From NCBI RefSeq assembly GCF_041248615.1, contig NZ_CP158426.1: a stretch of 64,000 bases of DNA, one strand, 5' to 3'. This DNA is from Escherichia coli (GTDB taxonomy: Bacteria > Pseudomonadota > Gammaproteobacteria > Enterobacterales > Enterobacteriaceae). Position numbers: made by a program. Below are positions 13,901-16,900 of the stretch, piece by piece. Each line of letters starts with the position of its first letter. The first letter of the stretch is position 1.

Positions 13901-16900
13901 CTTTGTGATTGGTCCGTTATTTTCTGGCTGATATTTGAGCGTATAACAGTGTTATACAGTGGTATACTGTATGGATATTACTCACTGATATGGTCTTTGC
14001 AATGAGCAAATCTAATCTGATCGCGTTCCGCATCCCATCTGAATTGCAGGATGAGTTTAATCGGTCTGTTCTCGCTTCTGGAGGGGATAAAACCTCCTGG
14101 CTTGTTGATGCGATTCGCATGAAGCTGGGACAGCCGGAAAAGTCTATTGATTCACGAATGCTTGGGCTGGTGGAGCGCATGGAAAAAGCCGCAGCATCGC
14201 TTATTGCCGGAAAGCCGAACATCCCACCAAAGCCATATAACGAAACGGCAGTTATAAAGATCATTGCCGATACCATCCGACAGGGATTTGATAATGGGCG
14301 TGTGATAGCGGAACGGCTCAATGAAGCAGGCTACCAAACAAAAGCTGGTAAAGCGTGGGATAAAGACATTTACAGCGCGTGGAAGCGTCAGGGTAACAAT
14401 ATTAAAAGAATCAATACGCTGCTTCAGTAATTGATCAGTGTATAAATGATATTTATCGCTCAATCGCTCCCTTTCCGCCCTTCAGCTACAGGGTCGTTGT
14501 CGGCGATAACAAAACCTAAGTCCTGAGAGAATCTCTCTCGTGGGAATCCTTTAGCAGGTAAACCCATTGAATCATATCCACATCCGGGAACATTTGGTTT
14601 AGAGTCAATAAGGTCTGCAATTTGCCGAAGCCATGTTGATCCCGGACCAAGTCGTTTAACTAAGTACCAGATAATACAGATCGCGCTAAAAATCCTCTCG
14701 CAACTCTCTGGATGGAGATTAAGTCCGTCAAAGTATTCATTATCCGGTACTGGAACTCGGGGATGCTTTCTATTCCATATTCTGGAATGGTGAGCGCAAC
14801 GATTCCTTATGAGATTAAGGCACTTCAACCATTTTGCAAATGTCTGCTTATTATCAATGCCAAAACGACGTATAATTTTCCCCTGCATATGACCATTAAG
14901 CATCGCATAATATTTAGACATCTGACCAAAATCCCAGGTCTCCACCGCCACCCAAAATGGAATCTCCTTGCCTTGGCTTCGATGCCATTCAATACAGTCA
15001 TCTCTGCTTTCGTCTAATTTTACTTTTTGCTTATACACCCAATGCTCGAAGGCAGATGAGAATTTTGGATTAATGTATTTTGATGACATGTAGGCAAGTG
15101 GATCATTGCGACCAACCTCATGCGCGATGACTGAACGAACATGAATCTCTATTCTTTCGATAGCATCAATCATCAAAAGACGCAGTTTTTTGTCAAAAAG
15201 ATATAGATCGTACGTCTTCTCGAAACTGGTACCAGCAAGAAATCGGTCTGTTCTGTACGAAAGACCTTTATCTGTTGTCGCAATAATTCTTGATGGGTAC
15301 CAAAAACCTGACAATCGATAATATCCAACCTGCGACAGCTTACGTATCGCACGATTTCGATCATTGATAATCATGCCACGTTCAAGTAGCAATCCTAGCA
15401 ATTCGTGATAGTCCTTATGAGGCTTTGCGGCAATCATAGTGGCGAAACAAAAGATAATAAAAGGCCCGACCGTGAAACTCACATGCCTGAAATCGGCGGC
15501 GGAGAAACAGAGGATCGGGCTCGGTTGCCTGTAACTCTATCCGAAGTTATCCACATGTCAATGCACAGTTACTTAGGAAACTAACATAGATACTATCATC
15601 ACTCACGAAAAACCACTATATGTGGTTTTTATTCATATTGTTATCCACTACAGGCTGTGTCAATAACTTTTACCTATTAATTGGGTAATTTCTACATTTT
15701 CCTATGCTGGCTAGTTTCTCTACTGAAAAGTTGGCACTCCTTAATCGCTTTTCGGTTAATACTATCGGTCTTCATATTGCCAGCAGCATACGCCATCCGA
15801 TAATTTCTATGCTACGCGCGCGTACTTGTCGCAAAATATCAGGCAAAGGCCAGATTCAGAACGTCGTGATAACCACCAGCACAACATGAGATGTCATGTA
15901 ACGCGATTTATCACACCAGATACATGTGATTGGTGTACCCGCATAAAACATCGTCATAGCGCGTCCTGTGCGCATATACGCCGATAATCAACACATCACC
16001 ACCACTCTGTCTTATGTAGAGAACAGTTTTATGGTGCTCCCCGCCATCGTGTGCGTACTGGTCGGACGTAGTTGCAAAATTTTTTGCAACTGATACCCCT
16101 CGCGCGCGTACTGGTCACGAAATTGGTGTTTTGCTGTGGCAGTGATATCAGAAAAATCTTCCTGTTTCACATAAAGCGGATATGCGCGTACTGTAACGGC
16201 CCCATCAACTGGGAGCGGATTTGAAATCCCGACCCAAGCTATGTACCAAATGCCATGTCTTGGATATATGATGATTGCCATTCTAAACAACGCTAAAGGG
16301 AGGGTTGGTGTGAATCAATTGAAGCGATTGGTTGTCTCCGGTTTATTATTTGCTTCTTTTGGAGCGAACGCTGAATGCTGGATTATTGGTGATCTGAAAG
16401 GACAAGAAGCCTCAAGTTCAGATGGGTATAACTATAAGTTATCATCTATACCAGATACCTTTCATTTGGTAATAAGTAAAGAGAAGGCGGATCTTATCTT
16501 GGCAAAAGATGGTATAGGTGGAGGTATTGATTATTACCCGCTATCTCCGAATGCCATGATGGGAAGAAGCTATCGAGATGGTCAACTGACGCTTGTCACA
16601 TGGGCAATCTCAAATGACGGAAAAGTGATCCATACACGAACAATTAGTCGATCTGATATAGGCTCATTTACAGGCTCATTTGTCGGCAATGTTAAAGGCA
16701 AGTGTTAATGTTCATAACTATTTGAAAAAAATACTAATTACTATTATAACCAACCATCCATGGCCATCTGTTATTGAGCTTCCTTTTGCGATGCTTGTGC
16801 TGCTGTGGTCAGTGATTGTGTGACCGTACTGATCGCTCTGTCATATGCTGTGCTACCTTTTGGCGTATTTGCCAGACGTAACAAGGCATTTCGTATAACA

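Follow-up and report, generated by a model that had tools for sequence, protein, structure and literature searches.

A Hex-family gene convergent with the ejection-protein operon of an Escherichia coli island encodes a predicted periplasmic protein and candidate superinfection-exclusion factor

The 64 000-nucleotide stretch of E. coli chromosome analysed here (contig NZ_CP158426.1, assembly GCF_041248615.1; hereafter the window) contains an integrative island of approximately 19 kb. Near one end of that island, at positions 16310..16708 on the plus strand, lies a small gene whose product we identify, from profile and pairwise comparisons, as a previously undescribed member of the Hex family, to which the Hex protein of phage 434 belongs. 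The 132-residue precursor is predicted, almost certainly correctly, to be exported to the periplasm. We give about even weight to the possibility that it is a superinfection-exclusion factor that would hinder P22-like phages in delivering their DNA, the gp7/gp20/gp16 conduit being the probable point of action. The argument for an exclusion role combines export, homology to Hex and occupancy of a slot equivalent to that of sieA; it is a comparative argument, and the conduit as molecular target is a guess. The initial annotation had already put the gene forward as a superinfection-exclusion candidate, a suggestion that now gains support from the Hex homology, from exchange of the gene for a SieA-like one and from the recurrent convergence of family members with gene 16.

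The open reading frame (ORF) runs from a GTG start to a TAA stop, and direct reading of the sequence places a ribosome-binding site (GGAGG, 16299..16303, plus strand) 6 nt 5' of the GTG. In RefSeq the gene is called longer, at 146 residues, with an ATG further upstream as its start (in the identical E. coli record NZ_LT599825.1). We consider the GTG to be the better supported start, judging from the sequences, because it yields a signal peptide of 21 residues, in keeping with the 18−22 residues of the homologues, because the extra N-terminal residues of the 146-residue form are unmatched in the family alignment, and because sister islands share the DNA through the GTG, at which RefSeq begins the different gene that they carry. 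The match to PHROG 2651, the approximately 33 family representatives and the confidence of the structural model (see below) establish that this is a genuine gene. The ORF of about 132 residues described in the initial annotation is therefore sound, as is its tail-to-tail arrangement with a 701-residue gene, from which it is separated by 62 bp. A terminator scan between the two convergent genes found none.

A profile hidden Markov model (HMM) search matched residues 17−132 to PHROG 2651 (E 1.3e-22), the sole PHROG hit, and the same PHROG takes in 434 Hex (E 1.4e-58), Emek orf129 (E 4.6e-60) and more distant members. BLASTP aligned residues 13−132 with 434 Hex over 123 columns at 31% identity (pairwise E 3e-21), and 434 Hex was also recovered (E 4e-13) when phage DNA (50 697 phage records, 2.3 Gb) was searched by tblastn. 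That search matched 16 records, every one at approximately 30% identity. The matched gene, which follows cI in phage 434 and in lambda-imm434 and is annotated 'repressor protection protein', is hex itself: the sequence printed in PMC3564112 is identical to the translation made here. Gene 38 (gp38) of Sf6 is a homologue in the same position after cI, while the matches in HK446, HK633, Sf101 and Huey overlap or abut a repressor gene; Chlobot was also matched. Two P22-like phages were found as well, namely Emek, where the gene is convergent with gene 16, and ST-35, where it is unannotated and lies at a similar genome coordinate.

A wider search of 1.84 billion proteins, represented by clusters, returned 40 matches, approximately 33 of them genuine. 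The long repetitive HMMER matches were dropped: P0007 and P0024 proved on inspection to be repeat-driven and spurious, and P0025, P0032 and P0034 shared their multi-stretch pattern. The Hex family is small and drawn mostly from Enterobacterales, with the 33 aligned members ranging from 126 to 148 residues. Cys23, at position 2 of the mature protein, and Gly31 are invariant, and Trp98, Gly126 and Cys132 are present in at least 90% of the alignment. The invariant Cys usually sits in an x-C-W context, a C-terminal G-x-C is likewise found in at least 90% of members, and the mature parts have two or four Cys residues in nearly all cases.

The N-terminus of the protein, MNQLKRLVVSGLLFASFGANA followed by ECW, has K5 and R6 in its n-region, a hydrophobic core and Ala at both −3 and −1. 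Our heuristic analysis over the 33 family members predicts a Sec type-I signal peptide of 21 residues (codons 16310..16372, plus strand), cleaved between ANA and EC. A signal peptide of 18−22 residues is present in 33/33 aligned members, with small residues at −3 and −1 in nearly all of them. A lipoprotein can be ruled out, since the Cys lies at +2, after Glu, leaving no lipobox in the target, and the +2 arrangement is kept across the family. The clear signal sequence without a lipobox that had been noted initially is thus upheld by the prediction. A cleavable signal peptide throughout the family, taken together with the two conserved cysteines (invariant at mature position 2, near-invariant at the C-terminus), points to the periplasm.

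The protein was modelled with AlphaFold2 as a small all-beta barrel (predicted local distance difference test score, pLDDT, 92), in which the signal peptide is the only hydrophobic helix. The mature domain of 111 residues (16373..16705, plus strand) is predicted to form a nine-strand beta-barrel carrying Cys23 and the C-terminal Cys132. Searching AFDB50 with Foldseek yielded E. coli models named 'Prophage protein' (template modelling (TM) scores 0.82−0.83, E approx. 1e-10 to 1e-9; 0.83 for the 158-residue model). They are 158 and 134 residues long, the two lengths annotated for Hex. We infer that the family consists of periplasmic barrels stapled by a disulfide. Lipocalins, MliC/PliC and avidin-type proteins are likewise small up-and-down beta-barrels exported by a signal peptide, but the structural likeness is generic only: for lipocalin or MliC/PliC there was no Pfam match even at E 10 and no match in a PDB sequence search.

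Comparison with sister islands showed that the gene lies within an exchangeable cassette (16314..16753, plus strand, from blastn break-points), the only stretch that differs from those islands, which have a SieA-like gene there. In the sister island L019 (NZ_CP074967.1) the DNA is 98.5% identical to window positions 13195−16313, including the ribosome-binding site and the GTG, and identity resumes at 16754, 17 bp past the gp16 stop, at 98.2%. A 2-bp indel relative to the sister islands lies in a G-rich stretch of the approximately 98%-identical upstream block that holds the GGAGG. The slot is filled in L017 (4367−4981) and L019 (4368−4982), both of which lie next to paoD, by a protein of 204 residues with, by eye, approximately four hydrophobic segments resembling transmembrane helices. 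This protein contains TNRYPGEARRARK, in which RYPGEA fits the RYPxEA core of the published SieA motif, FxRYPxEAxxFNK (PMC10883804), and it gives a weak match to PHROG 7745 'SieA-like' (E 4.6e-4; SieA type-B-like). All sieA-like genes examined in that study lay in P22-like prophages (PMC10883804), whereas the sister gene sits in a satellite-like island. The locus L018, a genuine P22-like prophage, has only the gp16 side in common with the target island, and its slot holds a membrane protein of 109 residues. Across 5426 complete E. coli genomes, the hex-like allele was counted in 125, the SieA-like allele in 103 and the 109-residue allele in 227−275, with close relatives of the target island's gp16 3' end present in 417. 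As its occupants differ between the islands and the prophage, the slot is a swap point for small envelope proteins, one alternative occupant of which would come from a proven exclusion family.

The genomic setting of other family members, sampled locus by locus for one representative after another, follows a related pattern. In Emek, L005, L006, L013 and L016, members at 30−40% identity converge on gene 16; the sieA position, convergent on gene 16, is reused in at least five other lineages. In L013, Arc and the tailspike are encoded on the far side of the Hex-family gene. A P22-like contig (L006−L008) has two tandem Hex-family paralogues of 128 residues each (3359−3745 and 3778−4164 in L006), both convergent with gene 16. 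Further members occupy moron slots of prophages, such as the position after cI (434, Sf6). Where such a member is flanked by tail genes and the tape-measure gene (in one case beside RexAB), or by lysis genes and the terminase gene, its strand is always the one opposite to the late genes. Within one siphovirus-type prophage (L010, 5001−6822), the Hex-family gene adjoins RexA/RexB inside the tail-gene region, with tail genes on one side and the tape-measure gene on the other, and the place looks like a defence or moron hotspot.

What is known of two characterized proteins shapes our proposal. Lambda-imm434 lysogens of Salmonella need the hex gene in order to exclude P22, according to Susskind & Botstein (1980) as cited in PMC3564112. 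SieA prevents P22-like phages from injecting their DNA, and the mutations that allow escape lie in the C-terminal parts of gp16 and gp20, two proteins that act in the periplasm and membrane (PMC10883804). We envisage that the hex-like gene would be expressed from the island through the conserved upstream region that serves the sieA-like gene in sister islands. The product is predicted, with family-wide sequence support, to be exported by Sec and cleaved after Ala21, and then to fold into a beta-barrel of approximately 12 kDa in which a Cys23−Cys132 disulfide probably ties the first strand to the last. Once in the periplasm it would hinder incoming P22-like phages in delivering their DNA, probably at the gp7/gp20/gp16 trans-envelope conduit or else at the cell-wall penetration that precedes it, with an outcome like that of the inner-membrane protein SieA.

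The likeness to 434 Hex extends over the whole mature length and includes a signal peptide followed by ECW, a C-terminal FVGxVxGxC and matching predicted barrels, and both genes are carried by a resident temperate element. They differ in that hex is co-transcribed with cI from PRM, while the target, like the Emek gene, converges on a gp16-type gene. Co-transcription with cI is a feature of 434 and not of the whole family. With P22 SieA (types A−C) the target shares a slot downstream of, and on the opposite strand to, gene 16, a location in the cell envelope and the inferred outcome of blocked DNA delivery by P22-like phages. However, SieA is a protein of the inner membrane with three to four transmembrane helices and a cytoplasmic FxRYPxEAxxFNK motif, whereas the target is a predicted soluble, exported beta-barrel with no RYP, no match to PHROG 7745 and no kinship to SieA in sequence or fold. 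Exclusion proteins located in the envelope are a familiar class that includes T4 Sp and Imm, the lipoproteins Llp of T5 and Cor of phi80, TP-J34 Ltp and HK97 gp15. The bacterial HXS system also has a periplasmic effector that stops phage DNA entry (PMC13128918). All of these are small proteins that work outside the cytoplasm to stop genome entry, and most come from a resident phage or element. The target has no homology to any of them, lacks a lipobox or membrane anchor, has no maturation genes of the radical S-adenosylmethionine type nearby and does not act by blocking a receptor as far as can be told.

Several observations weigh against the exclusion role. The protein has no match in Pfam (even at E 10), NCBIfam, PADLOC or a PDB sequence search. 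The SieA-like status of the sister allele is suggested by a weak HMM match and a short motif, and a tblastn search with the 204-residue protein returned nothing from phages. Several family members lie outside prophages, beside the atp operon, in a region rich in insertion sequences or in an array of small genes. The stretch separating genes 16 and 9 varies generally among P22-like genomes, so that position alone is no proof of a functional link to ejection proteins. Finally, a cytoplasmic role has been proposed for Hex itself, that of preventing RecA from stimulating cleavage of the 434 and P22 repressors (PMC3564112).

Applied to the target, that published role would have the protein stabilize lysogeny by protecting a LexA-like phage repressor from RecA-stimulated autocleavage in the cytoplasm, which we regard as very improbable here. 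The experimental case for Hex is that replacement of the gene raised spontaneous induction approximately 30-fold, in recA+ cells only, and that sHex, a fragment of the protein, acted in vitro as an inhibitor of 434 and P22 repressor cleavage and gave partial complementation of the defect (PMC3564112); the name 'repressor protection protein' has passed into the GenBank records of 434. The family-wide cleavable signal peptide, invariant mature Cys2 and near-invariant C-terminal Cys point instead to a periplasmic location for these proteins. By alignment sHex (Hex 43−103) corresponds to residues 22−81 of the target, which cover strands 1−5 of 9, and it was purified with guanidine hydrochloride, so that it was not the native barrel. 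In the hex mutant, a cat cassette equipped with a promoter and a terminator of its own stood immediately 3' of cI (PMC3564112), and in our view an effect of this cassette on cI expression is a possible cause of the induction phenotype. The sHex obtained from cells starts at Glu43 of the 158-residue Hex ORF (L002, 2438−2914), exactly after ...TSANS, the predicted signal-peptidase site, and over-expression of full-length Hex stopped growth (PMC3564112). The Glu43 start, the growth arrest and the partial barrel of sHex fit export better than a cytoplasmic role. Moreover, a repressor gene is not adjacent in most family members or in the target, and neither the annotation of the island nor the island ORFs scanned revealed a LexA-like repressor, the only annotated HTH protein having 72 residues; a repressor-protection role would therefore be inapplicable here.

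Two other explanations accept a periplasmic protein. It could be a lysogenic-conversion or fitness factor with no part in phage exclusion, for example by binding a small hydrophobic ligand in the manner of a lipocalin, or by inhibiting an enzyme of the host or the environment, such as lysozyme. We consider this unlikely, though with an appreciable chance of being right: Hex, the only family member with genetics, has an exclusion phenotype, the gene exactly replaces a SieA-like gene as an alternative allele, an AbiD gene adjoins it, and neither a lipocalin nor an MliC profile was matched in Pfam at the permissive threshold given above. Alternatively, the protein could serve the island's own ejection proteins as a periplasmic partner or chaperone, or as an immunity factor against them. 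A partner of the operon proteins had also been offered in the initial annotation, and the direct adjacency of a gp16-type gene, here and in five other lineages, speaks for such a link, as does the action of gp20 and gp16 in the periplasm and membrane. Yet the idea found no specific support, because sister islands retain a 98%-identical gp16 3' end while exchanging the hex-like gene for the SieA-like one. In addition, the members from the 434/lambdoid group belong to siphoviruses, which are not known to have gp16 homologues, and the hex-like gene and the operon lie on opposite strands and so are not co-expressed. Overall, we judge service to the ejection proteins to be improbable.

A more specific version of the exclusion role can be formulated, which we offer as a speculation with a small chance of being correct. 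The Hex-family proteins may be soluble periplasmic inhibitors that bind the P22-type gp7/gp20/gp16 conduit, providing a second exclusion mechanism, structurally unrelated to SieA, against the same target, with the hex-like gene and the island's divergent ejection genes acting as a pair. If so, carriers of the island would shut out ordinary P22-like phages while particles furnished with the island's ejection proteins would still inject, and the published cytoplasmic, RecA-related role of 434 Hex would be an artefact that arose from working with a truncated, unexported fragment.

The island that carries the gene lies at 12745−32074 of the window, between dinD and yicC. It encodes a tyrosine integrase, an Ant-like protein, an Ash-family protein, a TOPRIM/DUF927 primase and homologues of P22 gp14, gp7, gp20 and gp16, and beyond the gp16 homologue come the hex-like gene, an AbiD-family gene, a gene of 146 residues and a PerC-family regulator. 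All four ejection genes are on the minus strand: the gp14/DUF2824-like gene (20968−21429), the gp7-like gene (20297−20974) and the gp20-like gene (18876−20297), assigned by PHROGs 917, 598 and 651 for the operon set together with RefSeq annotation, and the 701-residue DNA-transfer (ejection) protein of P22 gp16 type (16771..18876; PHROG 770 and 29117; RefSeq 'injection protein'). No capsid, portal, terminase or tail genes (including gene 9) were found in the 19 kb. It is their absence that makes the island look like a phage satellite supplying its own ejection proteins, not a P22-like prophage, and the context of the initial annotation, which drew on P22-like phages, needs correcting: its 'operon' belongs to an integrative island without capsid or tail genes. 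A literature search found no description of such an island.

On the far side of the region upstream of the hex-like gene lies the AbiD-family abortive-infection gene (14460..15482, minus strand; PADLOC AbiD E 8e-58, PHROG 2158), followed by the 146-residue gene, which has an RHH-like N-terminus (13990−14430, plus strand), and the PerC-family regulator (13443−13730, minus strand). This composition suggests that the end of the island at 13443−15482 is an accessory and defence cargo region adjoining the hex-like gene. A 55-nt inverted repeat, 95% complementary between its copies at 13760−13814 and 22119−22173, contains three tandem GTTGGTTCA units. One copy is upstream of the RHH-like gene on the plus strand and the other upstream of the ejection-protein operon on the minus strand, so the repeat may be a shared regulatory site. 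Elsewhere in the window, a gene of 288 residues (2345−3211) between gltS and recG is annotated by RefSeq as a hypothetical protein.

The upstream region itself (15483..16309, plus strand) comprises 827 bp without an annotated gene, is kept in the sister islands and has one promoter-like site at 15777−15804. It contains five same-strand copies of GCGCGTACTG (at most one mismatch) at 15818, 15959, 16051, 16104 and 16184, all within 376 bp (15818−16193), and three of them are nested in a longer 23-nt repeat. Over the whole window this motif has 14 matches at the same threshold, against 4.3 expected. The repeat-rich non-coding region reported initially is thus real. We found no Rfam family, no unusual RNA fold (z −0.53) and no similarity among phage records for 15483−16309, and its six-frame translation gave no convincing degraded gene. 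One minus-strand ORF of 92 residues within it (16012−16290) had no match in PHROG, NCBIfam or PADLOC.

Hex has been named as an exclusion gene since 1980, and the sole biochemical study placed it in the cytoplasm. The family-wide export signal, the sieA position and the alternative occupants of the cassette combine into a testable hypothesis, that the Hex family would provide a soluble periplasmic block of P22-like DNA delivery, and the 'repressor protection protein' name in GenBank may need revisiting. The analysis also draws attention to a common E. coli island that holds ejection-protein genes without capsid or tail genes.

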